DNA of 64,000 nt from a virus: the IMG/VR virus record IMGVR_UViG_3300033475_000019, one strand, 5' to 3'. Shown piece after piece: positions 10,687 through 34,029 of the stretch; position 1 is the first letter of the stretch, and each line of letters begins with the position of its first letter. The position numbers were made by a program, and so were the translations under genes. A model generated the notes under the pieces. That model worked only from the letters and a program-made list of their open reading frames with translations. It searched no databases and was not told the DNA's origin.

Positions 10687-10693
10687 AGTCCCC

Positions 10694-15503: not shown

Positions 15504-15744
15504 GCCGACCGACGTCCAGGTCCGCATGCTGACGGACGAAGAGATCACGAGGTGGTTTCTCAAAGTCCAATGGCGGCTCTCGGGGTTGGAGTGGCGCGCA
15601 TTCGCCGACGCCGTGAACGGCAGCCCGCGCGTGGCGGTGGACTTCGTCAACGAACGCCTCTGCGGTCGTGACCTGAGCGACGAGCTGCTGCTGGCGGTGA
15701 TGCGCGAGCTGCCGGGGCACGTGCGGAAGGCAGGGATCGGTTGA
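15493..15744 (+). CDS. hypothetical protein
   Basis: 83 aa; ATG start. Confidence 0.5.
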   Translation: MPAEPTDVQVRMLTDEEITRWFLKVQWRLSGLEWRAFADAVNGSPRVAVDFVNERLCGRDLSDELLLAVMRELPGHVRKAGIG

Positions 15745-16202
15745 TGCCTGACCGCGCCACCCTCCACGCTCACGACCACAAGGGCCGACGCCTCTCGCGC
15801 CCCGTGCGGAAGATCACGATCGGCACCCGCATCACGCTCGAAGAGAAGCGCCGGCTTTTCGTCGATGGCGAGCAGTACGAGCCGCACAGCAAGCCGCGTC
15901 TGCGCAGCGAATGTGTCGACGGCGCGCGCCCCTGCCCGTTCGTCTCGTGCAGGTACCACCTGTTCCTCGACGTCACACGCAACGGCGGCCTGACGCTCAA
16001 CTACCCCGACCTCGAGCCAGACCAGCTGCTCGAGTCGTGCTGCTTGGACGTCGCCGACCGCGGCGGAGCAACACTCGAGATCGTGGGTGAGGTGCTCAAC
16101 CTGACGCGGGAGCGCGCGCGGCAGCTCGAGGAGATTCTGCTGGAGCGCCTGCGCAAATCTGAAGCATTTCGCGAGCTGTTCGAGGAGGCCACCAATGGCT
16201 AA
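15744..16202 (+). CDS. sigma-70 region-4-like DNA-binding protein
   Basis: ATG 15744 (TGATG). RPCPFVSCRYHLFLDV followed by CCLDVADRGGATLEIVGEVLNLTRERARQLEEILLERLRK, which reads like a sigma-factor region 4 HTH. Confidence 0.6.
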   Translation: MPDRATLHAHDHKGRRLSRPVRKITIGTRITLEEKRRLFVDGEQYEPHSKPRLRSECVDGARPCPFVSCRYHLFLDVTRNGGLTLNYPDLEPDQLLESCCLDVADRGGATLEIVGEVLNLTRERARQLEEILLERLRKSEAFRELFEEATNG

Positions 16203-16330
16203 CCGCCTCACCCCCACCGAGCTGCTCGACGCCGATCTCGCGATTCTCCTCGTGACTGCGCCGATCTGGATCGCGGGCTTTGTTGGGCTCGCGGTGGCGG
16301 GGTGGTGGAACGATCGAAGGGGGGTGGCGC

Positions 16331-17644: not shown

Positions 17645-17955
17645 ACCACGTCCCCACCGATCTCTTCGACTGCGTGGGCATCGGCGAAGCGTGGAAGCGC
17701 TCGGCCGAGGTCGCGAAGACGCGCCGCCTGCTGGTCACGATGTGGCTACTGCACCCGGAGCTTTCGCAGCGCTCGCAGGTCGAGATCGTCGCACGCGCGA
17801 AGGCGGTCTGGGATGTTCACTGCGATGGCCTTGTGCGTGCTGGTCGCGTCTCCGTGGCGACGGTGCTCGCGCAGCTGAAAGACCTGGGTTTCGTTCGTTC
17901 CTTCGACGCGGTTGAAGGTGGGTTCGCGGTTGAGCTTGTCAAGGAGGTTGCGTGA
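17641..17955 (+). CDS. hypothetical protein
   Basis: 104 aa; ATGA coupling. Confidence 0.5.
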   Translation: MNHVPTDLFDCVGIGEAWKRSAEVAKTRRLLVTMWLLHPELSQRSQVEIVARAKAVWDVHCDGLVRAGRVSVATVLAQLKDLGFVRSFDAVEGGFAVELVKEVA

Positions 17956-18878
17956 GCTGGATCGAGTTGGACGACGGGATTCTCGATCACCCGAAGTTTG
18001 TACGGGCCATCAAGCTGGCTGGGCCCGAGGCCTTGTTCCTTTGGCTCGGGCTGCGCGTCTACTGCGCCAAGTACCTCACCGACGGCTTCGTCCCTGACGA
18101 CATGCTGGACGAGGTGCGCGGCCCCAGGGACCCCGAGAAGCGAGCCGCTGCGATGGCAGCCCTGTTCGAGGTCGAGCTGCTCGAGAAGACGCGCCGAGGG
18201 GGCCTACAGATGCACGACTACCTCCACTGGTCCAAGAGCCGCGAGCAGGTCCTGGCGGCACGTGAGCAAGCCCGGATTCGCAAGGGCAAGTCACGCGGTC
18301 CTTCCGGTGGGAGTCACGGTGGTGGTCACGCTGGTGGTCACGGCGACCGTCACGCCGTCGGTCACGGTGTGACTCCTGGCGTGACCACCACCGTCGGTCA
18401 CGCACCCGCAGGGAGTGGTGGTGGTGATGGAGATCTGTCAGTTCCGAAGGCAACAACGGATCAGAGCGGGTCTCCGCGCGCGCGCGAGCTGGTGGACATC
18501 GCGCGGCGAATCCTCAAAAACCCCTACGATGGCGAGTATTTGCAGCCCTCGCTGCTGCCCGAGGTGCAGGCCGTAGCGGCAGCCTGGTCATTCGGAAACC
18601 CCGTTCGTTTGGGCAATTCTCCAAAGTCCGACAGCGATTTGCGGGCGATCCTGGAGGCAATCGCCGCGGAAAACCCAATTCCGGACCTGCTTTTGGCCGG
18701 TTCGCTGGCTGGCGCGTCCGATTGGTTTGCAGACCCGAAACGCCGTCACCCCGGGGCCTTCACGCCGGCCGTGCTGCGGCGGCTACTCGCGTCGAATGGC
18801 GCCCCAGCTGCACCGGCCCCCGACTTTGCCGCCGCCGCCGCCGCCCAGCAGCTGCGCGAAACCTTCGGGGAAGCATGA
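17952..18878 (+). CDS. putative replication initiator/organiser (helicase-loader position)
   Basis: GTG preceded by AAGGAGG. 308 aa, immediately upstream of and coupled to the DnaB-type helicase. Central Gly/His-rich linker is encoded by the GTCACG repeat array. Confidence 0.55.
   Translation: MSWIELDDGILDHPKFVRAIKLAGPEALFLWLGLRVYCAKYLTDGFVPDDMLDEVRGPRDPEKRAAAMAALFEVELLEKTRRGGLQMHDYLHWSKSREQVLAAREQARIRKGKSRGPSGGSHGGGHAGGHGDRHAVGHGVTPGVTTTVGHAPAGSGGGDGDLSVPKATTDQSGSPRARELVDIARRILKNPYDGEYLQPSLLPEVQAVAAAWSFGNPVRLGNSPKSDSDLRAILEAIAAENPIPDLLLAGSLAGASDWFADPKRRHPGAFTPAVLRRLLASNGAPAAPAPDFAAAAAAQQLRETFGEA
18290..18402 (+). repeat. iteron-like GTCACG array (candidate origin of replication)
   Basis: GTCACG at 18290, 18313, 18325, 18337, 18349, 18361 and 18397 (five consecutive copies exactly 12 bp apart). 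Inverted GTGAC at 18369 and 18381. Confidence 0.5.
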
Positions 18879-20251
18879 GCGACGACGCACACAAGCTCCT
18901 GCTCGCGCACGTGAACATCGGCGCCCGCGTGCTGTCGGCGTGGTTCGATGACGCCAAGTTCCGGGCCGCGTGGGCGCCCCAGGTCGAGCTGTTCTGCGGC
19001 GACTGGCAGCGCGCCATCGCCGCCATCTGCGCCGCCCGCGGCGCCACGCTGACGCGCGACGACCTCGTGATCCAACTCGAGCGCCAGGGCAAGCTGAAGC
19101 TCTGGGAGAACGGCGGCGAAGGCGTCATCGACAGCCTGATGGCGCCGACCGATCTGAACCCGTGGGGCTCGGTCGACAAGCTCCGCCAGGTCGCCGGCGA
19201 GCGGCTGCTGCTCGAGCGGCTGACCGTGATCCGGGGTGAGATCGAGCGCGGCGACGGCATGGCGGCCGCCCGCGAGGCGCTGGCCAACGCGCTGCGTGAC
19301 GCCGACTTCTCGAGCGGGGCCAAGGCTCGGACGGTCCGCGAAAGCCTCTCCGTGGCCTACAAGCACGCCACCACGACCGAGCGCCGCCCGGGCTGCCGGA
19401 CCATCAGCAAGGAGCTCGACCGCGTGATCGGCGGCGTGACCCACGGCTCGGTGACCCTGCTCGCCGCGCCGACCAGCTGGGGAAAGTCGAGCTTCATCGT
19501 CGGAACCGCCAACCGCGTACTCCGCGACAAGCAGCGCCCGCTGATCGTGACGTTCGAAGACCCCGAGCGCATGTTCGGCTCGCGCCTGTTCCTGACGCGG
19601 ACCAACGTGCACGCGATGCGCCTGCGCGAGGCGCGGCTGCTCAACGACGAGCACCGCAAGCTAGCCAATGCGCTCGCCGACGCCGAGGACATCCCGTGGC
19701 TCTTGCCGGCAATCGGGCGCAGCGCTGAGGCAGTGGCCTCCGACATCCGGAGCCTCGTCGTGGCGCACGGCATCGACGTCGTGATGGTCGACTACATGCA
19801 GCGCATCCGGCTCGCGGCGCGCTCGCAGGACCGACGCAACGAGATCAACAGCATCTGTTACCTGCTCACCGACGCGATCAAAGAAGCCGGCGCGGGCGGC
19901 ATCCTGTTTAGCCAGATCACCGAGGACGAGCGCACCGGCAAGCTCAAGGCGCGCGAGTCCGAAGATCTGCACAACTCCGCAGAGAACATCCTTTTCGGCA
20001 AGAAGCGCGTCGAGCAGGACATTGACGCGGAAGGCAAGAAGGTCGGCGAAAAGATCTCGCGCGAGATCTGGGTCGAGAAGGTCAAGGAGGGGCCCGTAGG
20101 CTTCTCGATCCCGCTGAATTGGAACCCGCACTCCGCGTGCTTCATCAGCGACTACGACGCCGAAGATCGCCAGCAGCAACTCGGCCTGCCGCCGACCGAG
20201 CCTGGGCATGACCCCAGTTACGACGACTTAGACGACCGATACGGAACCTAA
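18875..20251 (+). CDS. dnaB: DnaB-family replicative helicase
   Basis: 458 aa from ATG 18875 (ATGA overlap). Walker A LLAAPTSWGKSSF, Walker B VVMVDYMQRI, RecA-like C-terminal domain. The track start 18722 gives an Arg/Pro-rich run-on. Confidence 0.8.
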   Translation: MSDDAHKLLLAHVNIGARVLSAWFDDAKFRAAWAPQVELFCGDWQRAIAAICAARGATLTRDDLVIQLERQGKLKLWENGGEGVIDSLMAPTDLNPWGSVDKLRQVAGERLLLERLTVIRGEIERGDGMAAAREALANALRDADFSSGAKARTVRESLSVAYKHATTTERRPGCRTISKELDRVIGGVTHGSVTLLAAPTSWGKSSFIVGTANRVLRDKQRPLIVTFEDPERMFGSRLFLTRTNVHAMRLREARLLNDEHRKLANALADAEDIPWLLPAIGRSAEAVASDIRSLVVAHGIDVVMVDYMQRIRLAARSQDRRNEINSICYLLTDAIKEAGAGGILFSQITEDERTGKLKARESEDLHNSAENILFGKKRVEQDIDAEGKKVGEKISREIWVEKVKEGPVGFSIPLNWNPHSACFISDYDAEDRQQQLGLPPTEPGHDPSYDDLDDRYGT

Positions 20252-20871: not shown

Positions 20872-21089
20872 GCGACTCTCTCGGTGAAGCGCTCCCCCGC
20901 GAGATGGCTCGCGTGCGCGATGAGGTGATTCCCCAGTACCAGCACACCGACCCGATGCTGGCGCGAGCGTGCGCGCCAGCGTTGTTCATGATGCGGCGGT
21001 CGCTCGACCTCGCGGCGAAGGCCATGGCTGAGGGCGACGTGGTTGCGATGATGCGTTGCTACGAAGACCTGAAAGGCTATACAGCTTGA
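20868..21089 (+). CDS. hypothetical protein
   Basis: 73 aa; GTG start overlapping the upstream TGA. Confidence 0.45.
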   Translation: MSDSLGEALPREMARVRDEVIPQYQHTDPMLARACAPALFMMRRSLDLAAKAMAEGDVVAMMRCYEDLKGYTA

Positions 21090-21724
21090 ACAGCTCGCCC
21101 CGAATCGTGATCGCTTGCGACCCCGGGTTGGCAAACGTCGGTTACGGGGTCGTGCGCCGGCACAGCAACTCGGCTCGCCCCGAGCTAGTCGAGTCGGGCA
21201 AGATCGAAACGCCAGCCGACTGGGGCCTTAACGATCGGCTGAAGAAGATCTGGCGCGAGCTGGCGTTGCTCTGTTGCGACAAGCAGATCCGTCCGCACTA
21301 CTTCGGGATTGAAGACCAGAACGGCGCGCGTGTCGGCGCACGCATGAACGCGAAGCGTCAACTCGACGCAGCTCGCCAAGGCAAGGCCATCAAGGCGTTC
21401 GGGTTCAACGCAAACACCGACGCAGTGGGCGAGGTCGTCGGGATCATGAAGGCAGTGGCGTTCAGCTACGGGATCCCGGTCGTGATGTACGCCCCACAGC
21501 AGGCCAAGATCGCGGTGTGCGGCAAGGGCATGGGGCACGCGACGAAGCTCGAGGTCATCAACGCAATCCGGTTCGTGATGTTTCAGGGCATCAACCAAAC
21601 GGTTGGTGAGCACGAAGCCGACGCGCTGGCAGGCGCTGTGTTCGTCGAGCGCATGGTGCACATGCAAAACAAGGTCGTGAGGGGACCGAGAGCAGCGATG
21701 CAGAAAGCAAGGAAAGCAGGCTAA
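21086..21724 (+). CDS. RuvC-like Holliday-junction resolvase
   Basis: IVIACDPGLANVGYGVV (first catalytic Asp), YFGIEDQ, EHEADALAGAVFV (C-terminal acidic pair). TTG 21086 overlaps the upstream TGA; the start is uncertain. Confidence 0.65.
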   Translation: MNSSPRIVIACDPGLANVGYGVVRRHSNSARPELVESGKIETPADWGLNDRLKKIWRELALLCCDKQIRPHYFGIEDQNGARVGARMNAKRQLDAARQGKAIKAFGFNANTDAVGEVVGIMKAVAFSYGIPVVMYAPQQAKIAVCGKGMGHATKLEVINAIRFVMFQGINQTVGEHEADALAGAVFVERMVHMQNKVVRGPRAAMQKARKAG

Positions 21725-23672: not shown

Positions 23673-24163
23673 GTAAGAAACCAAGCGAGCGCTTCCTCGA
23701 ATTGCACCCGATGCGGCCGACCGACATACCGTATGGGGAAAAGCTCTACCTGCAACTGCTCGACGAGCTACACGAGAGGATCGCCAAGCTCGAAGATGGC
23801 GCGCCGCCGCCGGATGAGTTGGATCCGACGAAGACCAAGAGTCCCGAGCCAAGTGTGTGCGGCGAGTGCGGAGCCTATGCGGTTGAGGCGCTTGGCTCCT
23901 CCGTGACCAGCGCATATTACGCGCCGTACTTCGACACCGATGGTCGCCGTCACCACCACGACGCAAACGTGATTCGCAGCGCGCTGCGGTGCGCGAATGG
24001 TCACACTATCGTCCTGCCAGAAAAGATCGCAGGCAGCTGCTGGTGTGGTTGGCCGGCGAACGCAAAGGAAGCAGAGCCGGCTCCCATCGGCGTCTACGTC
24101 GGCGACAACCTCGGCAAGGTGAAGGGGTATGAGCCGGAGGCGGAAGGGAGCGAGGAGTTGTGA
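23669..24163 (+). CDS. hypothetical Cys/His-rich protein
   Basis: 164 aa; CGECG...C..H...CWC. Confidence 0.5.
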   Translation: MSKKPSERFLELHPMRPTDIPYGEKLYLQLLDELHERIAKLEDGAPPPDELDPTKTKSPEPSVCGECGAYAVEALGSSVTSAYYAPYFDTDGRRHHHDANVIRSALRCANGHTIVLPEKIAGSCWCGWPANAKEAEPAPIGVYVGDNLGKVKGYEPEAEGSEEL

Positions 24164-24471
24164 CGAGCCAGAACGAATGGGCCGATCGATTCGTGAAGAC
24201 CTTCGGCGGCATCAAGACTGCGCCTGGAGTGGTTTGGTTGCTGCCGGGTACCGAAAGAAAGCAAGACCAAGTGAGCAAGGGAATCGAGCCAAACAAGTTT
24301 CGAGGCATCGCCATCTACGCAGACCCCGAGCAGGAGATGGCCAAACGCAACATGGTCGAGCTCTCGCTGAGCAAAGCAACGAGCAAAGACCGCCAAGAGC
24401 GCGTTGACCATTTCACGCGCGTTTGGGGACGGGAGACGGTGCGCGCGGTGGTGGGAACGGACGGGGCCTGA
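24160..24471 (+). CDS. hypothetical protein
   Basis: 103 aa; GTGA coupling. Confidence 0.5.
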   Translation: MTSQNEWADRFVKTFGGIKTAPGVVWLLPGTERKQDQVSKGIEPNKFRGIAIYADPEQEMAKRNMVELSLSKATSKDRQERVDHFTRVWGRETVRAVVGTDGA

Positions 24472-24776
24472 TGGCAATCACGCGCTCTCACTGGCCGCCT
24501 CCGTTGGAGGACTACGGCGGCGACCTGCCCGAGTTGCCGCTCGCTCGAGCAATGCGAGAGAAGTCTACGGAGATCGCGCGAGAGGCGATGCTCTTGACGG
24601 CCAAGGCGCTGGACGCATGGTCGAAGCAAGCAGGGCTCACATTGAGCGAGTGGCTCGGCTTGTTCGACTACGTGGTTTCGATGAAACCTGGTGAGAAGTC
24701 GGGGACCGTCGTTCTCACTGTGACAGCGAAGGTGCGAGAGGTGCCGACGGGGCACGAGTTCACGGTGGTGGTCTAG
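24471..24776 (+). CDS. hypothetical protein
   Basis: ATG 24471 (TGATG); 101 aa. Confidence 0.5.
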   Translation: MAITRSHWPPPLEDYGGDLPELPLARAMREKSTEIAREAMLLTAKALDAWSKQAGLTLSEWLGLFDYVVSMKPGEKSGTVVLTVTAKVREVPTGHEFTVVV

Positions 24777-24890
24777 AAAACAGAAACCCCCGACATCGCT
24801 GCCGAGGGTCTCACCGTCGATTGCCGCCGCCGGATGAGACCAAGGTACCACAATGCCCCGCGCTGGTCGCGGAGCGGAAAAGGTTGAGCG

Positions 24891-25703
24891 ATGTCAGCAG
24901 CACCCGAGATTGGATTCCCGAGCGCCGTGTCCGCGCTCGCCAAAACGTCGTCCGTGATCAAGGCATCGGATGCCGAAGAGCTTCGGCGTTACTTCCGCCA
25001 AGGCGGCCTGAGCGTGTTCAACGGCAGCCCCACCGCTGCCCTCATGGCGCGGCTCAGCATGTTCGGGCGCACCGCCCACCCGTGCCCCGACTGCGGCGGC
25101 GACGTGAAGCGCTGGATCGGCGGGAGCGGCTTCGTCGCTTCGAGCCCCAAGCCCCGCGAGATGTCGGAGCGCCAGCGGGCCCTGCTCGCCGCGCTCGAGA
25201 TCTTCGTGCCGGATGGCCTCCTGCCGCCGGCCGATGACACGGTGTGCCGTACCTGCGAAGGCCGCGGCTGGTCGCTCCCCCGCCACCGCACCCACAGCCG
25301 CGCACCCATCACGGCGCGCCCCACGGGCTCCAGCAAGCGCGGGCACGCCGGCTCAGCCGTCGACGTCAACGAGTCGGACATGGCGCTCATGGGGCGCGTC
25401 TCCGGGCGCCTGGACCGCCTCAGGCTCGCTCAGGGCGACCTGCCAGCCTCGGCCACCCTGGAGGCCTTCTTCGGACCAGACGGCGGCACCCTGGGCGCGC
25501 TGTGGCACCTCGTGGCGTCGGGCAAGAGCATGCTGCGCAAGAACCCCAACAAGCTCCCGCCGCAGCAGCTTTGGCAAAACCTGCGCGCCGAGCAGTCCGA
25601 GAAACCCACCGACGGTCGAGCCGCCCAGTTCAAGGCGGCCGACGAGCAGGCCACGGCGCTCTTTCAAGCCAGCTGCCTGCTTTGGAACCAGGTGGTCCGA
25701 TGA
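24891..25703 (+). CDS. hypothetical protein with DnaJ-type CxxCxGxG zinc-finger motifs
   Basis: 270 aa; CPDCGGD and CRTCEGRG motifs. First gene after a 114-bp gap. Confidence 0.55.
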   Translation: MSAAPEIGFPSAVSALAKTSSVIKASDAEELRRYFRQGGLSVFNGSPTAALMARLSMFGRTAHPCPDCGGDVKRWIGGSGFVASSPKPREMSERQRALLAALEIFVPDGLLPPADDTVCRTCEGRGWSLPRHRTHSRAPITARPTGSSKRGHAGSAVDVNESDMALMGRVSGRLDRLRLAQGDLPASATLEAFFGPDGGTLGALWHLVASGKSMLRKNPNKLPPQQLWQNLRAEQSEKPTDGRAAQFKAADEQATALFQASCLLWNQVVR

Positions 25704-26035
25704 GGCTCCCTGTGATGATTGATGGGCAGCTTTGGGCGCTAGCAAAGGGGGAGCAAATCGGCGCGCTGGTGGTGGTCGAGGATGTGCCGACCATCGGGGG
25801 GTCGGTTTACGCCAGCCAGAAAGTGAACCTCGTTTGCGAGCTAGGCCACCACAGGGTGGTCACGTACGGAACGGTTGCCAGGTGGGAGAATTCGGAAGAA
25901 GCGAAAGAGGGCCAACATCCAGCGCGCTGTCTGACGTGCCCGGAGCCGCGTAAACTACGTGAACTCAAGCGCAAAGCTCGGGAATGGGAGCGCGACACGC
26001 TACAGCGCCTCTGTGGCAATCGCGGTGCGCAATGA
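25700..26035 (+). CDS. hypothetical protein
   Basis: ATG 25700 (ATGA); 111 aa. Confidence 0.5.
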   Translation: MRLPVMIDGQLWALAKGEQIGALVVVEDVPTIGGSVYASQKVNLVCELGHHRVVTYGTVARWENSEEAKEGQHPARCLTCPEPRKLRELKRKAREWERDTLQRLCGNRGAQ

Positions 26036-26481
26036 GCGGCCCACGCGACGTGCTCACCTTCCGGCAAATGGCCCGCCGCCTCGGCTGGTCGGACACCCGC
26101 GCGTCCGGTCGAAAGCTCGCCCGCCTGATCCGGGCCCGCGAGAAAGAGACCGGCCGCCGCATCGCCACCACCACCGAGGGCGGGCACCGACGCATCACCG
26201 AAAGTGCCCTCACCCGCTACCTGCCCGAACTCCGCCGGTCGAAGGTGGACGAGCTCATGGGCAACTTCAGGGCGTACTTATCCGACATCGACGACCGGAT
26301 CGCCGAGGGCGCGGCCGCCTACATCGCCGAGAACGTGGATCCGCAAATCGCGGAATTGCGTGCTGACGATCAGAAACTGGCACGAATGCTCGACGAACTG
26401 GGCCGCCGCATGGTCCTGGTAGCAGGCGGAAATCGGCCCAGAAAAGCCCAAATTCGCCCCACCCTGAGCACCAAGGGATGA
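26032..26481 (+). CDS. HTH DNA-binding protein
   Basis: ATG 26032 (ATGA); 149 aa. LTFRQMARRLGWSDTRASGRKLARLIR is HTH-like, followed by a coiled-coil C-terminus. Confidence 0.5.
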   Translation: MSGPRDVLTFRQMARRLGWSDTRASGRKLARLIRAREKETGRRIATTTEGGHRRITESALTRYLPELRRSKVDELMGNFRAYLSDIDDRIAEGAAAYIAENVDPQIAELRADDQKLARMLDELGRRMVLVAGGNRPRKAQIRPTLSTKG

Positions 26482-26625
26482 GAGACCTGAAGGCGTCACG
26501 CGCGCCCACGGTCCCGAGAGACGAGCCCCGAGACGGACCAGCCGGCGAAACGCTGGCGGCGAGTTGCGGGAGAGGCTCACCGACCGCGACATCACAGCGA
26601 ATACCGACAGCACCAAGCGCTCGTA

Positions 26626-26655
26626 CGCCGGACGCGGCGGTAAAAACACGGTTGC
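26626..26655 (+). promoter_or_regulatory. conserved stem-loop plus AAAAACACGGTTGC element, copy A (upstream of the terminase genes)
   Basis: CGCCG-gacg-CGGCG-gt-AAAAACACGGTTGC. The 14-mer is identical to 32119-32132, and the stem differs but stays complementary. Confidence 0.55.
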
Positions 26656-26676
26656 CGGGCGCAAGGGGCAAGCAGG

Positions 26677-27123
26677 ATGGGCAAGGCCGACACTGCCACT
26701 CAGCGCACGTGCGACAAGCGGCGCCGGAGCAAGGCACCAAAACCCGCTGAGAGGGTGATCCGCATCAAGCGGATGATGTCGGAGGGGCTGTGGCAGGAGG
26801 GCGTCTCCGACCACGAGCTCGCCGAGGAGTGGAAGTGCGACGTCTCCACCGTCCGGCACAGCTCGGCCGAGGCGTCACGCGCGATTCTGAGCCAGGTCCA
26901 GGACGCAACGTTCGCGGGCCGGATGCTCACCGTCCTGCTCGACAACATCACGAACGCCCGTAACGCACGCCGTTACGAGGCGGTGGTCCGGTCCGTCGAG
27001 GTAGCCCTCCGGATCGTCGGCATCGACGCCAACAAGCCGCCGCCCCCGGACGCGAACACGACTCGGCCAGCCGAGATCGTCTTCGTCGAAGCCAAGGCGC
27101 TCCCGGAGACTGCAGGTGGCTGA
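26677..27123 (+). CDS. putative terminase small subunit
   Basis: 148 aa basic/HTH-like protein (WKCDVSTVRHSSAEASR), immediately upstream of and overlapping the large terminase gene. Follows a 195-bp non-coding region. Confidence 0.5.
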   Translation: MGKADTATQRTCDKRRRSKAPKPAERVIRIKRMMSEGLWQEGVSDHELAEEWKCDVSTVRHSSAEASRAILSQVQDATFAGRMLTVLLDNITNARNARRYEAVVRSVEVALRIVGIDANKPPPPDANTTRPAEIVFVEAKALPETAGG

Positions 27124-28525
27124 CGCGGCGCGCCGGATGGTGCTGCCGCTCAACGGACCCCAGCGCAAAGCTCGAGCGGCACTCCGGCCCGGCAACACCG
27201 TCTTCATCGGGTGGGGCCGCGGCGTCGGCAAGTCAAAGTTCATTCGCCTGATGCTCTGGTCGCTGATCGCGGCTCACGAGTACCAGGCGCGCACCAACGC
27301 GATCACGCCGTTCTTTGGTGTGCGCATCACGGTGCTGATGCCGACCTTGAAGCAATTCAAGGACGTGCACTGGGCCGGCATCGTTGAAGACCTGACGGGC
27401 GCTTGGGCGTGGCTCGGCGCGCGGCTCGACAAGCAGACCGGGCAGATCAACTTTCCGGGCGGGAGCTGGCTCAAGCCGTTCCCCGCCACCGAGCACAACG
27501 CTCGCACTGCACTCGGCCTCCGCACCGACGTGCTGGTGATCGACGAATGCGACAGCGTCGAGACCGGCGTTTACGACGCGGTTGCGATGCCGTGGCTCTC
27601 GGAGCCGTGGTCGCTCGCCATCCAGATCATAGCTGGTACGCCCAACATGGGCCGCCACGGGCTCTGGTGGCGCACGTACCAACAAGGCCTGCAGGGTGAG
27701 CGCGTTCGCCAAGGTGAGACGCTGCCGCTGCTCGAAGGCGAGACCGAAGCCGAGCGCGACCAACGCGCCGATGCTCTCAAAACCGTCTACTCGTTTCGGG
27801 CCTCCTACAAGGACGCGCCCGAGACCGTCGGCAAGCGAGCTGTCGCGAAAGCGAAGGCGACGACGCTGCCCGCGACGTTTCGGCGTGAATGGGAAGCGGA
27901 TCCGGATGCGGGCGAAGGGCTCGTTTATCCGTTCAACGAAGACTTCCACGTCATCGGCGGGCCCGACTGCCCACACGCAGAGCCACCCGCGCTCTCCGCC
28001 TGCCGCGAGTTCCACGTCGGCATGGATCACGGCTGGGTCGATCCCGCAGTGCTCTTGCTCGGCGGCATCACGGGCCACGGCAACGACGCCACGCTCTGGC
28101 TGCTCGACGAGTGGTACGAGAGCGAGTGCCCGAACCACGTTTGGAACGAGCGCGCCAAGCTTTGGGACTTTGCCAAGTTCTGGCCTGACCCTTCCCGCCC
28201 CGATCGCATCAACGACCTGCGCAGCGCGGGCTTGAAGGTCGGCGAGACCGACAACGACATTCACGGCGGCATCGCCCGCGTCGCTGACCTGCTGTTCATT
28301 CGCACGACCGAGAGCGGCGAGCGTTGGGCGCGCATGTACGTGTCGCGCAAGTGCGTGAACTTCATCCGCGAGATGGGGCTCTACCGGCGCAAGAAGCTGC
28401 CGGATGGCACCTTCGGTGAAGAGCCGGCCGACAAGGACAATCACGCGATGGACGCCGGGCGCTACCTGGCTGTCGGGCGATTCGGTCGCGGTCCCAATTA
28501 CCGCACCCTCGTCTCGGGCAGCTGA
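27116..28525 (+). CDS. terL: terminase large subunit
   Basis: Walker A GWGRGVGKSKF, Walker B VLVIDECD, C-terminal nuclease acidic motifs (HVGMDHGWVDP, DNHAMDAGRY). Start is GTG 27116 or ATG 27137. Confidence 0.85.
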   Translation: MADAARRMVLPLNGPQRKARAALRPGNTVFIGWGRGVGKSKFIRLMLWSLIAAHEYQARTNAITPFFGVRITVLMPTLKQFKDVHWAGIVEDLTGAWAWLGARLDKQTGQINFPGGSWLKPFPATEHNARTALGLRTDVLVIDECDSVETGVYDAVAMPWLSEPWSLAIQIIAGTPNMGRHGLWWRTYQQGLQGERVRQGETLPLLEGETEAERDQRADALKTVYSFRASYKDAPETVGKRAVAKAKATTLPATFRREWEADPDAGEGLVYPFNEDFHVIGGPDCPHAEPPALSACREFHVGMDHGWVDPAVLLLGGITGHGNDATLWLLDEWYESECPNHVWNERAKLWDFAKFWPDPSRPDRINDLRSAGLKVGETDNDIHGGIARVADLLFIRTTESGERWARMYVSRKCVNFIREMGLYRRKKLPDGTFGEEPADKDNHAMDAGRYLAVGRFGRGPNYRTLVSGS

Positions 28526-29928
28526 TGCACACGTCCATCCAATTCCAGGGCCAAGAAGAGGCGAACAAGATCGCCCTGGCCAACATGCCGCCGCGCTACC
28601 GGCGTCTCGAGGATCTCGAGCGCTGGGTCGAAGGTCGGCAGTACGAGGGACGCCCGAGCTGGTGGGACGACAAGCAGCCGCTCTGGGAGCGCGCGCCCTG
28701 CATCGTCTACCCGGTCGTTCAGATCGCCATTCAGTCCAACGTGGACTTGGTGCTCGGCGAAGGCCGTGCGCCGACCTTCACCAGCAAGCCTGGTGAGGAA
28801 GAAGCCGACGAGGACAACGGGCTCGGTGAGGACGACTCGCAGAAGCTCGACCGCTTCATCGTCGAGCACCACCGCATCAGCCGCTTCCGAGCTCACTGCC
28901 GCGATGCCTTTGCCGCGGCGCAGGGCTGCGGCACCGCCGTTGCTATCCACGGCGCTCGAGCAGGGAAGCCTTTCCAAGACCTGATCCCCGCAAAGTGGGG
29001 CAACCCGACGTTTGACGTTTCGGGCGCCGTCATTGAGCTGGAGATCCGCTACCCGTACTTCGAAGAGTTTCGGCAGCGCGACGGCTCGTGGGGCGTGCGC
29101 TGCAAGCTCTACCGCCGCGTCATCGACGCCGAGAAGGACACCACGTTCCTTCCGGCCGACGCGAAGGATAGCGGCGCCGAGCCTGATTGGCAGGCAGACC
29201 CCAAGCGCACGTACCCGCACGGCTTCGGCTTCTGCCCGGTCGTCTGGTACCCGCTGCTCCGCGGCTGTGCAGCCGTCAACGTGATCGACGGGACGGCGCT
29301 GCATGCGCTGCTCACCAACGAGATCCAGGGCCACGACTTCGCGGTGAGCCAGCGACATCGCTGCGCACTGTTTAGTGAGCCGCAGGTGGTCGAGATCGGC
29401 GTCGACGCGGACCACAATCCTACGGACATGGGTCGCCCTGCCGTGGTGCCAGCCACCGAGCACGGTGGACGTATCACCACCACCAACCCGCAGAAGGGCG
29501 CCTATCTGGACACCGGCGGGAGCGCTACCGGGCCGGTGCGTAAGAAGGGCCCTGGCAACGTTTGGCGGTTTCCCAACCCTGAGACGAAGGTCGAGTACCT
29601 CTCGATCCCGGCGGATTCGCTCAAGGCCATCGACGACAACGCCCGCGACCTGCGCATCAAGCTGCAGGAGGCGCTCGGCGTGGTGTTTCTCGACCCCGAG
29701 AACATCAAGTTTGCGGCGACAACTAGCGGCAAGGCGCTCGAGGCGATCAAGCAGAAGCAGATCGACCGCTGCGACCAATTCCGCGACGACTTGCGCGACA
29801 ACTTCCTTTTGCCAAGCGTGGACATGCAGCTCCGGATCGCTCACAAGCTGGGCGCTGGGCTGAAGGTTCCGGGCGCGGCTGAGGTGCAGAAGCTGCTCAG
29901 CAAGTTCGATAGCGACGCGGTTCTCTGA
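28525..29928 (+). CDS. portal protein (main part)
   Basis: 467 aa ORF coupled (TGATG) to terL; size and position are typical. The C-terminal portal-like pattern appears to continue in the next ORF. Confidence 0.65.
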   Translation: MHTSIQFQGQEEANKIALANMPPRYRRLEDLERWVEGRQYEGRPSWWDDKQPLWERAPCIVYPVVQIAIQSNVDLVLGEGRAPTFTSKPGEEEADEDNGLGEDDSQKLDRFIVEHHRISRFRAHCRDAFAAAQGCGTAVAIHGARAGKPFQDLIPAKWGNPTFDVSGAVIELEIRYPYFEEFRQRDGSWGVRCKLYRRVIDAEKDTTFLPADAKDSGAEPDWQADPKRTYPHGFGFCPVVWYPLLRGCAAVNVIDGTALHALLTNEIQGHDFAVSQRHRCALFSEPQVVEIGVDADHNPTDMGRPAVVPATEHGGRITTTNPQKGAYLDTGGSATGPVRKKGPGNVWRFPNPETKVEYLSIPADSLKAIDDNARDLRIKLQEALGVVFLDPENIKFAATTSGKALEAIKQKQIDRCDQFRDDLRDNFLLPSVDMQLRIAHKLGAGLKVPGAAEVQKLLSKFDSDAVL

Positions 29929-30326
29929 TGGCTTGGATGTCTCCGACGCTCCAGGTGCAATGGGGCGCCTACTTCAAACCAGATCCGACTGAGCAGCTCG
30001 CGGTCGTGCAGATGACCCAAGCGGCTCTCGGCGGTGGCGCCGCTGGCGGTGAGCCTCTCATCACCAAACGCATCGCCGTCGAGCGCCTCAAGCCGATCTT
30101 CGGCATCGAGAACGTCGACGCGGTGCTCAAGGATCTCGAGAAGGAAGCCGATGAGCGAGCCCAGCGCGAGCTCGACGCTGCAACTGCCCAGATCGACGCG
30201 CAAGCTCGAGCTCAAGGGCTTGGCCAGGATGCTGGCGGCGACGCTGCCGGCGCGACTGGTGGTGGCGGGCGGCCCGCAAGCGGGAAAGACAACGCTCGTA
30301 AGCCACCTGGCTCGAGCAAACCCTGA
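29928..30326 (+). CDS. portal C-terminal-like segment as a separate ORF (possible split portal)
   Basis: ATG overlaps the portal TGA. The first ~75 aa (LQVQWGAYFKPDPTEQ...ITKRIAVERLKPIFGIENVDAVLKDLEKE) resemble the C-terminal region of SPP1-gp6-type portals (from memory). The last ~40 aa are Gly/Ala/Arg junk overlapped by the P-loop ORF. Confidence 0.4.
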   Translation: MAWMSPTLQVQWGAYFKPDPTEQLAVVQMTQAALGGGAAGGEPLITKRIAVERLKPIFGIENVDAVLKDLEKEADERAQRELDAATAQIDAQARAQGLGQDAGGDAAGATGGGGRPASGKDNARKPPGSSKP

Positions 30327-30630
30327 TGCGAAGGTGCGCGGCAGCGACGAGCTGATCGGCCTTGGCTGGTCGGAGTCGTCGGAGGCCGCATCGCACTGGT
30401 TCGATGAGCCGGGCTCATGGATCTGCGAAGGCGCCGCAATGCCGCGAGCGCTGCGCAAGTGGCTCGCCCGCAACCCCGAAGGCGCACCCGCCGACCTGAT
30501 CGTCTGGGTGAACGAGCCGGTGGTCGCGCGAAGCCGCGGCCAGCACGTCATGGCGCTCGGTTGCCAGACCGTGTGGAACGAGATCCGGACCGAGCTCACC
30601 GAGCGCGGCCAAAGAGTCCTCGAGTTTTGA
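30229..30630 (+). CDS. P-loop NTPase/kinase-like protein
   Basis: Walker A LVVAGGPQAGKTTLVSHL; about 133 aa from ATG 30229 (alternative ATG 30151). Sits in the head module. Confidence 0.55.
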   Translation: MLAATLPARLVVAGGPQAGKTTLVSHLARANPDAKVRGSDELIGLGWSESSEAASHWFDEPGSWICEGAAMPRALRKWLARNPEGAPADLIVWVNEPVVARSRGQHVMALGCQTVWNEIRTELTERGQRVLEF

Positions 30631-30631
30631 C

Positions 30632-30805
30632 ATGAAGACCTGCCTGCTCTGCAACACCGACAACGCCGACGACGCGGTCACCTGCGTGGCGTGCGGTGAA
30701 GCGACGTTTGGTGCCACCGAGGCGGCAGTTGCAAACACCGTCGACGCCATGAAGGCCAGCCCGGCACCCCAAGAGGCGCCCGTGCCTAAGCGAAGCAAGC
30801 GCTGA
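30632..30805 (+). CDS. zinc-ribbon protein (57 aa; not in the ORF track)
   Basis: Own translation: MKTCLLCNTDNADDAVTCVACGEATFG...KRSKR, with two CxxC pairs. The stop overlaps the next ATG (TGATG). Confidence 0.5.
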   Translation: MKTCLLCNTDNADDAVTCVACGEATFGATEAAVANTVDAMKASPAPQEAPVPKRSKR

Positions 30806-31245
30806 TGCATCGCGTTTTTACTATCTCCGACACGACACCCGCGGCGGCCAGCACGGCCGTCAGCACGCTGAGCGTCACGGGCCTTTCGCTCTTTCCGTAC
30901 CTGCGCGTGGACGCCGACCTCATCGGCGCCACTGGCGGGACGCTCGACATCTACCTGCAGCGCCTCATCAAGCCGAACGCATGGGCGGACTGGCTCCACT
31001 TCGCGCAGCTGGCCTCCGGCGCTTCGGCCATTCGCTACAGCGCGATCGCCTGTCACGCGCTCTCGACCACCATCACGACCAACAACCGCGGCACCGATGC
31101 GGCGCCGGGCGTGTCGCTCGCGGCGGCCACCTTCGTGGGCGGTCACCCTGGTGACGTGGTGCGAGCCGTCTACGTGGCGGGCGCGAGCACGAGTGCCGGC
31201 GCCGCTATCACCATCGACATCACCGGCTTCGGCCAATTCCGCTGA
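30805..31245 (+). CDS. small beta-rich head-module protein
   Basis: 146 aa, Thr/Ala/Gly-rich. N-terminal RVFTISDTT resembles RYFTISGGS of the ORF at 34029. Confidence 0.55.
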   Translation: MHRVFTISDTTPAAASTAVSTLSVTGLSLFPYLRVDADLIGATGGTLDIYLQRLIKPNAWADWLHFAQLASGASAIRYSAIACHALSTTITTNNRGTDAAPGVSLAAATFVGGHPGDVVRAVYVAGASTSAGAAITIDITGFGQFR

Positions 31246-31248
31246 CCG

Positions 31249-31638
31249 ATGCAACGCTGGGCCACAACGAACGCTCTGACCGAGAGCGGCGCCCCAGATC
31301 CGCACGTGTTCCAGCTGGGCGGCGGCCCTGAGCTACCGGCTCAGCGAGCGGCCTCAGAGAACGAGATCAGCGCAGCTGAGCTTGCGGCCGTGGTTCCGCC
31401 GCCGCGCGCGATGGCGGTTGCGCCGGCGCCAACTGTGACACCCAAGTCTGCGCCGACCACCGACGCGCCGCTCAATACGGCCACGGTGCTCCGGCAGCTC
31501 AAGGCGCGGCTCCGCGTCGTCGAGCGCGAAATCAAGACCCGCAAAGCGCTCGAAGCTGAGCGCGAGCAGATCCAGCGGCTCATCGCGGCCGCCAAGAACG
31601 AACGAAGCAACCTGCGCGCCATTCGCGCGACGGGCTGA
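31249..31638 (+). CDS. hypothetical protein with a coiled-coil C-terminus
   Basis: 129 aa. Confidence 0.5.
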   Translation: MQRWATTNALTESGAPDPHVFQLGGGPELPAQRAASENEISAAELAAVVPPPRAMAVAPAPTVTPKSAPTTDAPLNTATVLRQLKARLRVVEREIKTRKALEAEREQIQRLIAAAKNERSNLRAIRATG

Positions 31639-31649
31639 ACGAGGAAAAC

Positions 31650-32072
31650 ATGGCAACCATCGCAGGAACGATCCGCAGCTGCAACCTCAAGAGCAAGGCC
31701 TTCTCGGGCGCTGGCACCACCACGCGCGACCGCCTCGAGGTCTGGGAAGTGACCGCGGATTTCGCGGCCTACACGGGCTCGACCGATGACGCTTCGCTCG
31801 CAGCGGTGGGCGCGGCCATCAGCGCGCGCGCTCGCGACGGCGCCACCCGCACCATCCTCTGGGGCGCCCCGGCGTTCTGCGGTGCGGACGGCAACAACCA
31901 GGCTGTCAACTTCTGCGGCACGTCCGTCGCTGCCCTCACGGTGAGCACGGACGACCTGACGGGTGAGCTCTGCACGGTGAACACCGTGTCGACGGAAGTC
32001 ACCTCCACGAGCGGCACCACCTACGGCGTCGGCATTCTCGTGGGCGTGGCGGTGACGGTCACGAGCAACTAG
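31650..32072 (+). CDS. small beta-rich head-module protein
   Basis: 140 aa; SD GAGGA upstream. Confidence 0.55.
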   Translation: MATIAGTIRSCNLKSKAFSGAGTTTRDRLEVWEVTADFAAYTGSTDDASLAAVGAAISARARDGATRTILWGAPAFCGADGNNQAVNFCGTSVAALTVSTDDLTGELCTVNTVSTEVTSTSGTTYGVGILVGVAVTVTSN

Positions 32073-32102
32073 CGATCTGCCAGTAGCTCTCTGACTCCAA
32101 CA

Positions 32103-32132
32103 CGTCCGACGGGACGGCAAAAACACGGTTGC
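32103..32132 (+). promoter_or_regulatory. conserved stem-loop plus AAAAACACGGTTGC element, copy B (upstream of the scaffold/capsid genes)
   Basis: CGTCC-gacg-GGACG-gc-AAAAACACGGTTGC, 14 nt upstream of ATG 32147. Confidence 0.55.
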
Positions 32133-32146
32133 TTGGAGGCAAAGAG

Positions 32147-32851
32147 ATGTTTCGACGTTCCCGTTTTCTCATGAACACGGAGGGCACGGCTGCGCCCAGC
32201 GGCGCCCAGCCTACCCCTGTTGCACCGCCGCCGGCGCCAGTTGTGGCTGTGCCCGCGGCAAGCGACGACCAGAACCCGCCTTGGCTCAAGGGGCGACTCG
32301 AGAGGGCCCAAAAAGAGGCACTCGAGGCGCTCGGGATCACCGACCCAGCCAAGGCCAAGGCGGCGCTCGACGCGGCCAAAAAGGCCGAGGACGAGGCGAA
32401 GAGCGCGGCGCAGCGCCTTGGCGAAACGAGCACTGCGCTCGAAGCTGAACGCGCTCGCGCCGCTGCCTACGAGTCGGTGATCAAAGAGCGTGCTGCCAGC
32501 GAGATCGGTGGCTTGACTGCCGATCAGCAGGCAGCGGTGCGGAAGATCGCTCCCGACACCGACCCGGCAGCGCAACTCCGAGCTATCACGGCTCTGGCGC
32601 CGACATGGAAGGCGGCAGCGCCCGCGGCTCCTGCTGCACCAGCGGCAACGACGCCAGCGGCAGCCACGCCTGCTGCAGTGGCACCATCTGCGCCGCCCGC
32701 CAACACAGCACCACCGCCCACCGCGCCACCGAGCGCAGCTGGCTCACCACCAGACCACAAGGCGGAGTACGCACGCTTGAAGCAGAGCAATCCCGTCGCT
32801 GCGAGCGCGTACATGCTCGAGCACGCCGACAAGATTTACCCGCGAGCGTAA
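32147..32851 (+). CDS. scaffolding-like protein
   Basis: ATG 32147 follows GGAGG (the track TTG 32129 lies inside the conserved element). Ala/Glu/Lys helical middle and Ala/Pro-rich tail. Directly precedes the capsid gene. Confidence 0.55.
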   Translation: MFRRSRFLMNTEGTAAPSGAQPTPVAPPPAPVVAVPAASDDQNPPWLKGRLERAQKEALEALGITDPAKAKAALDAAKKAEDEAKSAAQRLGETSTALEAERARAAAYESVIKERAASEIGGLTADQQAAVRKIAPDTDPAAQLRAITALAPTWKAAAPAAPAAPAATTPAAATPAAVAPSAPPANTAPPPTAPPSAAGSPPDHKAEYARLKQSNPVAASAYMLEHADKIYPRA

Positions 32852-32940
32852 GCGCCAATCAGGGCGCCCGCTGACCCGCGGAGTTTCACCGGCCGAGAGC
32901 CGGAGCGCCGGGATCTGCCCGGAATTCACGAGGACAATCC

Positions 32941-34029
32941 ATGCCCATTTCACGAGCCGAGCTCTCCGAAGAGTTTTTCGACCGCACGTCGGCCATCCTG
33001 CTGCGCCAACCGGAGCCGCAGTACCTCTACGCGATGATGTTCAAGCGCGCCCTCGGCGTGTCTCTGAACATTCCGTCGATGATCGGCCGCACGCCGTACG
33101 AGATCGGCGGCCAAGGCGCGCCCTACACGCGCGCCGACGCGGATCGCCTGATGCTCTCGGCCGATCTCGGTGCCGAGCTGTTCGCCGCGAAGGCCAACTT
33201 CACCGGCGAGCCCGGCCACGTCATCAAGTTCAACCGGCCGCGCTTCACGGATTCGACCTACACCCAGGCGGCCCGTGAGATCGGCGTGAACCAGTCGATC
33301 TCGACCACGCCGCTGGTGGCCGGCAGCGAGCAAGCGCTCCTGCAGATCCGTCGCTACGCTGGCCCCTATGGCTCGACCGCGGTGCAGCCCTACGGCCTCG
33401 ACGCCTTCGACTCCACGATGGGCGTGCACGACCTGGCACAGTTCGTCGGCACCCACATGGGCCGCGACTACGACAAGACGCTCGACTCCTTCTGGGTGTC
33501 GCTGGCCGACAACGCCTCGACGACCGTCTACCCGTTGGGCATCACGGCCGACAACGACATCACCGCCAAGGGCATGGCGCCGTTCACGTACGAGCAGCAG
33601 TCTCGCGTCAGCAAGGCGCAGGACGAAGCAAACCTGCCCACGCTGCCCGACGGCCGCCGCATCATGGTGGTGACTCCGACGGGCAAGAAGCAGCTGAAGG
33701 ACGATCCGCAGTTCGCTCGCTACTGTGAGTTCCACAAGGAACTGAACCCCATGTTCCCCGGCTGGTTCGGTTCCACCGCCGAATACCACTACTTCATGAG
33801 CAATACGCTCACGAAGAGCTCGAACAGCTCGACGGTGCTGGTGCACAAGGCCCACGCCATCGCCCCGGGCGCGTTCCTGGGCGGCGTCGGCAAGAAGCCG
33901 GGCAACGTAGTCGCGGCGAGCGACGACAACTACGGCGAGACCGCGAAGGTCATCTGGCTGGCGTATCTCGCGCTCGGCCTCGCCGACAACCGCTTCGTGA
34001 CCAAGGTCGCCTACGGCGAGGACGTGTAA
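32941..34029 (+). CDS. major capsid protein
   Basis: 362 aa ORF after the scaffold-like gene and before connector genes; SD GAGGA. Size and position are typical. The family was not identified without a search. Confidence 0.65.
   Translation: MPISRAELSEEFFDRTSAILLRQPEPQYLYAMMFKRALGVSLNIPSMIGRTPYEIGGQGAPYTRADADRLMLSADLGAELFAAKANFTGEPGHVIKFNRPRFTDSTYTQAAREIGVNQSISTTPLVAGSEQALLQIRRYAGPYGSTAVQPYGLDAFDSTMGVHDLAQFVGTHMGRDYDKTLDSFWVSLADNASTTVYPLGITADNDITAKGMAPFTYEQQSRVSKAQDEANLPTLPDGRRIMVVTPTGKKQLKDDPQFARYCEFHKELNPMFPGWFGSTAEYHYFMSNTLTKSSNSSTVLVHKAHAIAPGAFLGGVGKKPGNVVAASDDNYGETAKVIWLAYLALGLADNRFVTKVAYGEDV

Follow-up and report, generated by a model that had tools for sequence, protein, structure and literature searches.

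A putative structured leader RNA upstream of terminase and scaffold genes in an uncultured temperate-like phage

A short element occurs twice in a 64,000-nucleotide stretch of viral DNA (IMG/VR record IMGVR_UViG_3300033475_000019; the whole stretch is called the window here). One copy precedes a putative small terminase gene (terS) and the other precedes a gene for a head scaffolding protein. Each copy is probably a structured RNA leader that acts in cis to control how translation of the next gene is initiated. Comparative analysis shows the element to be a predicted RNA fold of three helices rather than a DNA site: an outer closing helix (P0), a hairpin (P1) and, in the commonest variant, a pseudoknot (P2). 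The case for translational control rests on sequence comparison, and the trans-acting partner is hypothetical. An initial annotation had called the element a late-gene control element and listed several ways in which it might act. That it is conserved, non-random and placed at head and packaging genes has stood. Among the listed options an RNA structure acting on translation is now favoured, and the promoter and activator options fit poorly.

Two copies at two start codons

Re-reading of the sequence confirms both copies as first annotated. Copy 1 occupies 26626-26655 and reads CGCCG-GACG-CGGCG-GT-AAAAACACGGTTGC, and copy 2 occupies 32103-32132 and reads CGTCC-GACG-GGACG-GC-AAAAACACGGTTGC. The GACG loop and the 14-mer AAAAACACGGTTGC are the same in both. 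Over 31 nucleotides (nt) the copies are identical at 26 positions, and the stem stays complementary despite the changes: four of the five differences combine as two compensatory changes of base pair, one from C-G to U-A, the other from G-C to C-G. The distance from the 14-mer to the ATG is 21 nt in copy 1 (ATG at 26677) and 14 nt in copy 2 (ATG at 32147), again as annotated. The scaffold start codon is considered fixed because the N-terminus MFRR is conserved in three related loci (L001, L004 and L023; related loci are given L numbers throughout).

Is the repeat itself informative? The initial annotation held that an exact repeat of an A-rich 14-mer is very unlikely by chance in such a GC-rich sequence. 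For this particular 14-mer, 1.6e-4 further occurrences are expected from the window composition. Exact 14-mer repeats in general are not rare: the window has 110 exact ones, compared with about 28 in block shuffles. Those with a GC content of 50% or less number six, against 0.7 expected. Most repeated 14-mers of the window are GC-rich, and their location in coding sequence is only assumed. The repeat alone is thus weak evidence, and it is the comparison with related elements that is decisive.

The minimum-free-energy folds of both window copies (RNAfold) occlude the Shine-Dalgarno sequence, with helix P0 drawn outside the part that had been annotated (Table 1). The cognate P0 duplex energy is -18.6 kcal/mol for copy 1 and -14.5 kcal/mol for copy 2. 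In copy 2, 10 of 12 P0 positions are pairable by eye and RNAfold draws nine pairs.

Comparative evidence for the fold

Related phages were the place to look for the motif, as the initial annotation had proposed, and dozens of uncultured phages carry it; some 60 related elements were compared. The initial outline of the element proves to have been partial. The stem-loop P1 is real, but the outer helix P0, in which the ribosome-binding site is paired, had been missed, as had the pseudoknot found in the commonest variant (type A).

Type A is an H-type pseudoknot in which part of the P1 loop pairs downstream to form P2. Its third loop, L3, reads G(U)(N)AAC and the Shine-Dalgarno sequence lies 1-4 nt downstream (an example is laid out in Table 1). 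In the 28 type A copies all 196 cells of P1 and P2 are paired (100%). The covariation score is 0.472, versus 0.096 in shuffles (0 of 500 reach it) and 0.054 or less in slid controls. Pair 18-26 of P1 is C-G in 12 copies, G-C in eight, U-A in six and U-G in two, while pair 23-41 of P2 is C-G in 19 and A-U in nine. RNAalifold recovers P2 independently, and for 26 of the 28 copies discovery preceded the use of any filter for pairing. In distant capsid relatives the same layout recurs with P2 strands of unrelated sequence (CCGC/GCGG, CCAC/GUGG, CACGCG/CGCGUG, CGCUG/CAGCG, UCGCG/CGCGA and UGUG/CACA), and a strict descriptor matched six of nine distant leaders, versus 0.03 expected in shuffles. A loose pseudoknot descriptor was set aside as uninformative in DNA of 65% GC, having given 33 matches on the plus strand and 35 on the minus strand of the window. 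The evidence for the pseudoknot is therefore confined to the aligned covariation and to the strict descriptor with its shuffles.

P0 cannot be aligned column by column (MAFFT places gaps at the ends), and was assessed by comparing cognate with non-cognate duplex energies. Across 46 copies the cognate flanks average -11.3 kcal/mol and the non-cognate flanks -8.3 kcal/mol (permutation p < 1e-4). In other words, the complementarity is specific to each copy, as in CCUUCC/GGAAGG, UCCCUU/AAGGGA, GCUCCC/GGGAGC, UCCUCU/AGAGGA and CUCCG/CGGAG. The 5' strand resembles the anti-Shine-Dalgarno sequence of 16S rRNA (CUCC), and the 3' strand is or abuts the Shine-Dalgarno sequence of the gene. P0 is thus a closing helix that usually, though not always, contains the ribosome-binding site. 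In the alignments of both variants G-U pairs are present and A-C pairs are absent. Therefore, the pairing is in the sense-strand RNA.

Both window copies belong to a second variant, type B, which has a 5-bp P1, a GACG tetraloop, the tail G-(C/U)-AAAAAC-N-CGG, a linker and the 3' strand of P0. Covariation of the stem, first noticed between the two window copies, extends to type B as a whole: 94% of P1 cells are paired and the score is 0.489, versus 0.164 in shuffles (0 of 500 reach it). To the two stems of the window (CGCCG/CGGCG and CGUCC/GGACG) relatives add four complementary variants (CGCCC/GGGCG, CGUCG/CGACG, CCUCG/CGAGG and CGCCU/GGGCG). The 14-mer had been taken for the conserved unit. 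As such it is not kept in the capsid relatives, and only AAAAAC-N-CGG is conserved in type B, where it aligns with L3 and the 3' strand of P2 in type A. When the pattern carried no requirement for CGG, N-CGG still followed AAAAAC in all type B copies with a paired stem and a start codon downstream. TTGC, which ends the 14-mer, is found in seven of 18 type B copies and is, by this count, a lineage-specific linker.

Two further pairings were tried for type B and rejected. RNAfold draws a GYAA/UUGC mini-helix in both window copies (in copy 1, UUGC with GUAA at 26640-43), but it is not a conserved pairing, and most other type B copies lack it. If the tail CGG is instead paired with CCG on the 5' side of the stem, the register differs between copies with G-C and with C-G closing pairs.

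The two variants are combined in different ways. L001 and L101 have type B at terS and type A at the scaffold gene, the window and L095 have type B at both, and L003, L004, L011, L021, L038, L014 and L008 have type A at both. Judged by where they occur, types A and B are interchangeable. L095 has in addition a third type B-like copy on its minus strand (about 11340-11385 in reverse-strand coordinates), GGCUCC-UA-CGUCG-GUCG-CGGCG-GC-AAAUUCGAAACAA-CGG-AGCC. Its closing helix is a perfect 6 bp, no start codon follows immediately, and its position is apparently some 3 kb downstream from where the scaffold gene starts.

Placement in related phages

Regions upstream of the relatives' scaffold genes share a motif, and a profile was built from these. 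Using sequence only, the profile places the element at two fixed sites per phage, just upstream of the scaffold ATG and of the terS ATG. It gives 55 matches on the coding strand versus three on the other, a count in which most loci were pre-oriented by the capsid gene and pattern-found loci were not. From the end of the core to a Shine-Dalgarno-like tetramer the median distance is 3 nt, and to the start codon it is 14 nt (range 7-39). The terS-like genes of L001, L003, L004 and L011 are also preceded by homologous leaders. Relatives with about 35% capsid identity lack the element.

In L001, L004 and L023 the element begins 4 nt past the stop codon of the preceding gene. A promoter would not fit into such a gap, and the element is therefore part of a polycistronic mRNA. 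Coupling of its translation to that of the upstream gene was considered as a general explanation and dropped: the stop lies 4 nt from P0 in these three loci, whereas in others the gap ranges from 14 to more than 30 nt.

The element is not tied to one family of head genes. Type B with an identical hairpin sequence precedes scaffold genes of families PF06810 and PF14265 in unrelated phages, whose HK97-type capsids are unlike that of the window and one of which has a GC content of 47%; the copies in L124 and L112, for instance, precede proteins matching PF06810 and PF14265. The window scaffold itself matches phrog_2303 only. A type A pattern run across the whole collection gave 116 matches, mostly coincidences within coding sequence. 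P1 is paired in 10 of these and about eight look true, about five of them new. Further type A copies stand before a scaffold gene (L155), a terS gene (L158) and a gene for a Zn-ribbon protein of undefined function (L171). In L197 (6559-6632) and L148 (3051-3110) the type A copy is 45-60 nt upstream of a major head protein gene (phrog_1357), suggesting that the element is modular and its expression platform variable.

Other structures are found near some of the leaders. Directly upstream of P0 many copies, though not those of the window, have a hairpin with a GNRA or UUCG tetraloop, such as GCGC-GAAA-GCGC, GCAGG-GAAA-CCUGC or AGCGC-UUCG-GCGCU. The stem sequence varies while the structure is kept, and 1-2 nt are common to the hairpin and P0 (L001 3369-3380, L003 2846-2857, L004 2985-3000, L009 3117-3133, L020, L101, L102 and L108). 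Terminator-like hairpins lie shortly upstream of the leader in L038 (about 2500-2530, CCCCGC...GCGGGG then TTTTT) and in L007 (4864-4890, GGGGCGG...CCGCCCC then TGTTT).

Proposed translational control and its alternatives

How might such a leader act? Folded, it would occlude the ribosome-binding site, and translation would need the fold to be opened or left unformed. Since terS heads the packaging genes and the scaffold gene heads the scaffold-capsid pair, the leader would gate both. The likeliest controller would be a trans-acting factor that reads the features common to the variants, namely A-CG on the 5' side of P1, GA-CG in the loop and the tail G-YAA..AC-N-CG. Variants coexist in one phage and type B is found among unrelated head modules; therefore a partner must read either these shared features or the shape of the fold. 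By analogy with known operators a protein would be the most likely type of partner, and a first guess would be a late or head-assembly protein of the phage that represses or activates translation. Failing that, the leader might have a constitutive role, either fixing the stoichiometry of the proteins or keeping read-through transcripts silent in the lysogen.

Several observations weigh against this proposal. For the window copies the minimum-free-energy z-scores (-0.43 and -0.19) do not stand out. GC-rich sequence folds anyway, and the case for structure therefore has to come from comparison. Even there, two of the 28 type A copies came from a regular expression that required pairing, and a pseudoknot could not be demonstrated for type B, in which there is at most a 2-bp contact between CG in the loop and CG in the tail. 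Occlusion is usual but not universal. P0 covers the Shine-Dalgarno sequence only partly in copy 1, and the closing helices of L197 and L148 (GCUCC/GGGAGC and CUCGC/GCGAG) do not include the gene's own Shine-Dalgarno sequence. The presence of different variants in one phage is something that a sequence-specific protein would have to tolerate. Finally, the unrelated scaffold and capsid families argue against one assembly protein as the universal partner.

Could the leader act on the message in another way? It might protect the scaffold-capsid message as a 5' structure, forming a barrier to 5'-end-dependent RNases, or mark a processing site, with any effect on translation being secondary. Scaffold and major-head genes are among the most highly expressed late genes, and the association with them would suit a stabiliser. 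So would the stable capped hairpin directly upstream of P0 in many copies, and the L197 and L148 copies, which are 45-60 nt upstream of the ribosome-binding site and have a P0 that does not involve the Shine-Dalgarno sequence. However, terS is not a high-expression gene and the window copies have no capped hairpin upstream. Moreover, the 3' strand of P0 is the Shine-Dalgarno sequence in most copies and covaries with its partner, which a simple stabiliser does not need. We regard the stabiliser as unlikely. A metabolite riboswitch of the preQ1-I, SAM-II or guanidine-III kind, coupling translation of head genes to host metabolism, is distinctly improbable. In its favour, the topology and size are like those of the smallest pseudoknot riboswitches. 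The variable distance to the ribosome-binding site in a few copies recalls modular expression platforms, and CGCCCGACGGGGCGGCAAAAAC-N-CGG is identical in type B copies from phages whose GC content spans 47-67% and whose capsid and scaffold families are unrelated, suggesting a partner that is not phage-specific. Set against this, short stretches have no Rfam match even at E <= 10, the sequences of L1, L2 and P2 are not conserved family-wide, which leaves no conserved binding pocket beyond the needs of the fold, the 4-nt loop of type B is too small for a pocket like that of preQ1-I, and the gene context is structural rather than metabolic.

Other alternatives place the effect at transcription. 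As a processive antitermination RNA of the lambda nut or HK022 put type, the transcribed hairpin would act together with the CUCC(A)A box before it to modify RNA polymerase at the start of each late transcription unit. Each genome has two copies, heading two late gene blocks, boxA-like sequences (GCGCUCGUA, CUCUCCAAUA) lie upstream of a 5-bp hairpin, and L007 and L038 have the terminator-like hairpins just upstream. Yet the box covaries with the Shine-Dalgarno sequence and is thus a helix strand rather than a box for protein binding. A start codon always adjoins the element, which can begin 4 nt past the preceding stop. No intrinsic terminator was called at either window site, and none on the plus strand of 24500-33000. 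The hairpin itself does not qualify as one, an A-run following it on the plus strand and a T-run preceding it on the minus strand. Antitermination is no better than an outside chance. The least probable reading is a DNA-level site, be it a late promoter read by a polymerase that the phage has modified (for instance by way of the window's Sigma70_r4 protein), an activator dyad or a terminase recognition site. The window does encode a protein with sigma-70 region 4, the stem is an inverted repeat in DNA, and one copy adjoins terS, near which pac sites often lie. But the compensatory changes keep pairing and not sequence, where a dimeric DNA-binding protein would conserve its half-sites. The element is strand-specific, with G-U but without A-C pairs, and both a pseudoknot and pairing with a Shine-Dalgarno sequence that is part of the fold are meaningless in double-stranded DNA. 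Nor is there room for a promoter in L001, L004 and L023. The initial annotation had already judged that the late copies are not ordinary promoters, and a sigma-70 scan agrees, finding no promoter-like site in 24500-33000. By eye, sigma-70, sigma-54 and extracytoplasmic function (ECF)-type promoter readings give no consistent hexamers, and upstream of the terS or scaffold copies no shared block was seen that could be a conserved promoter. Translational control accounts for the data better than a stabiliser, antitermination or a DNA site.

Late-gene control in tailed phages is usually described as transcriptional. The element would provide a testable handle on post-transcriptional coordination of head assembly. 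It also has a use in annotation, marking the true terS and scaffold start codons in divergent phages. A bolder idea, offered tentatively and on balance doubtful, is that of a portable "head-gene switch", a new class of protein- or ligand-responsive riboregulator exchanged horizontally among unrelated tailed phages. Its pseudoknot-clamped anti-Shine-Dalgarno helix would occlude the ribosome-binding site and gate the translation of terminase, scaffold and capsid, and packaging and capsid assembly would thereby be coupled post-transcriptionally.

Genome context

The window looks like a temperate-phage genome with a GC content of 65%. Megablast of 24000-34000 against 50,697 GenBank phage records returned no near-identical phage. 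The capsid relatives were drawn from IMG/VR, from metagenomes and from three metagenome-assembled genomes (MAGs; Phycisphaerales, Planctomycetales and Myxococcota), and these MAG matches point to Planctomycetota and Myxococcota as hosts. The best available hint of Planctomycetota hosts for this phage group is L021, a 94.9-kb contig of the Planctomycetales MAG (CAZNDQ010000001.1). It has both leaders (at 2308 and 9058) and a capsid protein 49% identical to that of the window.

Coordinates are collected in Table 1. Two DNA methyltransferases are encoded in the window (N6_N4_Mtase and D12 class). Among candidate trans-acting factors, the proteins encoded at 24891-25703, 25984-26481 and 31650-32072 gave no informative family matches, and the Sigma70_r4 protein gave nothing beyond its Pfam domain. 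The Zn-ribbon protein of L171 was considered as a relative of these candidates, but is unrelated to the upstream proteins of the window and to the Sigma70_r4 protein. Many relatives have an extra small open reading frame between the homologue of 31650-32072 and the scaffold leader (L001 8797-9110, L004 8774-9067, L009 2807-3112 and others). The window lacks it, and it is GroES-like by eye only (MALDIKPVEGMVALQI...).

Table 1. Positions of the leader parts and of other features of the window, with a type A leader for comparison
Feature	Position	Strand	Basis or remark
Copy 1 (terS leader), P0 5' strand, CC-aa-GCGCUCG	26613-26623	+	RNAfold: 26617-26623 with 26656-26662, 26613-14 with 26665-66
Copy 1, hairpin P1, CGCCG/CGGCG, GACG tetraloop	26626-30 / 26635-39	+	RNAfold; type B stem covariation
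Copy 1, A-rich linker L3, GUAAAAACA, then conserved CGG	26640-26651	+	AAAAAC-N-CGG conservation in type B
Copy 1, UUGC linker, end of 14-mer, lineage-specific	26652-26655	+	in 7/18 type B copies
Copy 1, P0 3' strand, CGGGCGC-aa-GG	26656-26666	+	overlaps Shine-Dalgarno AAGGGG 26663-26668
Putative small terminase (after copy 1), 148 amino acids	26677-27123	+	position directly 5' of large terminase gene (phrog_2)
Copy 2 (scaffold leader), P0 5' strand, CUCUCUGACUCC, anti-Shine-Dalgarno mimic	32087-32098	+	RNAfold pairs with 32135-32146
Copy 2, hairpin P1, CGUCC/GGACG, GACG tetraloop	32103-07 / 32112-16	+	RNAfold; type B covariation
Copy 2, A-rich linker L3, GCAAAAACA, then conserved CGG	32117-32128	+	AAAAAC-N-CGG conservation
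Copy 2, UUGCUU linker	32129-32134	+	
Copy 2, P0 3' strand, GGAGGCAAAGAG	32135-32146	+	includes Shine-Dalgarno GGAGG 32135-39; reaches start codon
Head scaffolding protein (after copy 2), 234 amino acids	32147-32851	+	phrog_2303
Type A example in L009: P0 5' strand CUCUCC (anti-Shine-Dalgarno mimic), linker AAAUA, P1 5' CGC, loop GA-CGCC-G (CGCC = P2 5' strand), P1 3' GCG, A-rich L3 G-UAAC-U-G, P2 3' GGCG, linker AA, P0 3' GGAGAG (Shine-Dalgarno), spacer AGAC, AUG	L009 3130-3179		
N6_N4_Mtase DNA methyltransferase	2325-3197	-	
cI-like helix-turn-helix protein	10139-10618	-	
cro-like helix-turn-helix protein	10658-10993	+	
Tyrosine recombinase (PF00589)	13757-15205	+	mid early operon
Sigma70_r4 protein, 153 amino acids, Cys-rich, C-terminus = sigma-70 region 4	15741-16202	+	Pfam domain
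D12 class N6-adenine methyltransferase	16280-17644	+	
Replication initiation protein	17952-18878	+	
DnaB-like helicase	18722-20251	+	
RuvC-like endonuclease	21056-21724	+	
Large terminase (phrog_2)	27116-28525	+	
Portal	28525-29928	+	by position; without family match
Major capsid	32941-34029	+	weak match to phrog_1357

A looser third version of the element had been proposed at 10628-10661, and this site is not a member. Its three mismatches to the 14-mer are within chance (five matches versus 3.05 expected), no profile detects the element there, and the site has no GACG loop, Shine-Dalgarno sequence or closing helix. It falls in the divergent regulatory region between the cI-like and cro-like helix-turn-helix genes, and it is this region that accounts for the proposed third version. 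A perfect 16-bp palindrome, GGTATCCGCGGATACC, lies near the divergence at 10669-10684, inside a possible TTGCAC-N17-TACCTT promoter (region 10652-10690). It is present in a single copy in the window and is probably a repressor operator.

Comparison with known systems

A search of Rfam 15 (4227 families, cmscan) gave no match at the gathering score in the whole window and eight related loci, none at E <= 10 when short stretches surrounding copy 2 and a type A copy were searched, and none at E <= 1 in seven loci with type B before GP20-type scaffold genes. The covariance models GP20-a (RF02991) and GP20-b (RF03003) were among those unmatched in these searches. These two, along with six unnamed candidate structured RNAs, are found upstream of GP20 scaffold genes, and others upstream of terminase and capsid genes (PMC10690425). 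The likeness is one of position and proposed function: GP20-a and GP20-b are conserved structured RNAs directly upstream of tailed-phage scaffold genes and have been proposed to be cis-regulatory, and type B stands directly upstream of a Phage_scaffold PF06810 (formerly GP20) gene. However, GP20-a and GP20-b are 107 and 72 nt long, whereas the present element is a pseudoknot of about 45-60 nt with a closing helix, and it also precedes terS and major-head genes. Among RNA motifs upstream of scaffold genes it is apparently an undescribed family, the comparison being with Rfam 15 and not with the 10,006 unnamed candidates of PMC10690425.

In architecture the type A element resembles preQ1-I (also SAM-II and guanidine-III). 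Both are very small H-type pseudoknots with an A-rich third loop, presumably in the groove of P1, and in both the 3' strand of P2 contains or adjoins the Shine-Dalgarno sequence, with control by sequestration of the ribosome-binding site being proposed here. The preQ1-I model (RF00522) found no match at E <= 10 on stretches of 101-161 nt. Unlike preQ1-I, the present element has a closing helix with an anti-Shine-Dalgarno mimic and loop sequences that are not conserved, the loop of type B has only 4 nt, the genes are structural phage genes and a ligand is hypothetical. The luteovirus-type frameshift-stimulating pseudoknot of beet western yellows virus (BWYV) has an A-rich last loop ending ...AAAC-CGG. 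It shares with the present element a short GC-rich stem 1, a first loop of 1-3 nt, a stem 2 of 3-6 bp and the A-rich last loop. In contrast to the BWYV frameshift signal, the element lies in an intergenic leader upstream of a start codon and is enclosed by the Shine-Dalgarno helix. A -1 frameshift pseudoknot was rejected on these grounds, the element being intergenic and not 5-8 nt past a slippery heptamer in overlapping frames.

The resemblance to lambda nut (boxA-boxB) and HK022 put lies in the presence of two copies in each genome, both heading gene blocks, and in a short hairpin after a pyrimidine-rich box. Here, though, the upstream box varies, and in each copy it complements that copy's Shine-Dalgarno region. 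In place of the GNRA-like pentaloop of boxB there is GACG or a 7-nt pseudoknot loop, and the element abuts the start codon and can sit between cistrons. With boxA not conserved as sequence and no GNRA-like pentaloop, the element is not a lambda-type nut site.

The T4 gp43 operator and Mu Com at mom are protein-controlled translational systems. Autoregulation of the P22 scaffold has been known since 1985, and we know of no defined RNA operator for it. According to PMC5529062 (citing Casjens and Adams, 1985; Wyckoff and Casjens, 1985), P22 scaffold synthesis is controlled post-transcriptionally by free scaffold protein. The leader of T4 gene 32 is a pseudoknot operator (PMC10690425), and the E. 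coli rpsO pseudoknot is a translational operator with S15 (PMC7038950). In the P22 scaffold, T4 gp32, rpsO-S15 and Mu Com systems a protein adjusts the translation of its own or a partner gene through a structure, often a pseudoknot, at the ribosome-binding site, and the present element resembles them in having such a structure there. It has no sequence similarity to any of these and serves two or three different genes. The resemblance to autogenous operators thus covers the fold and its location at the ribosome-binding site, and binding by the gene product is hypothetical. By kind, the element would be a cis-regulatory leader RNA of phage head genes, with a predicted architecture, a pseudoknot and an anti-Shine-Dalgarno helix, that is well supported by comparison.

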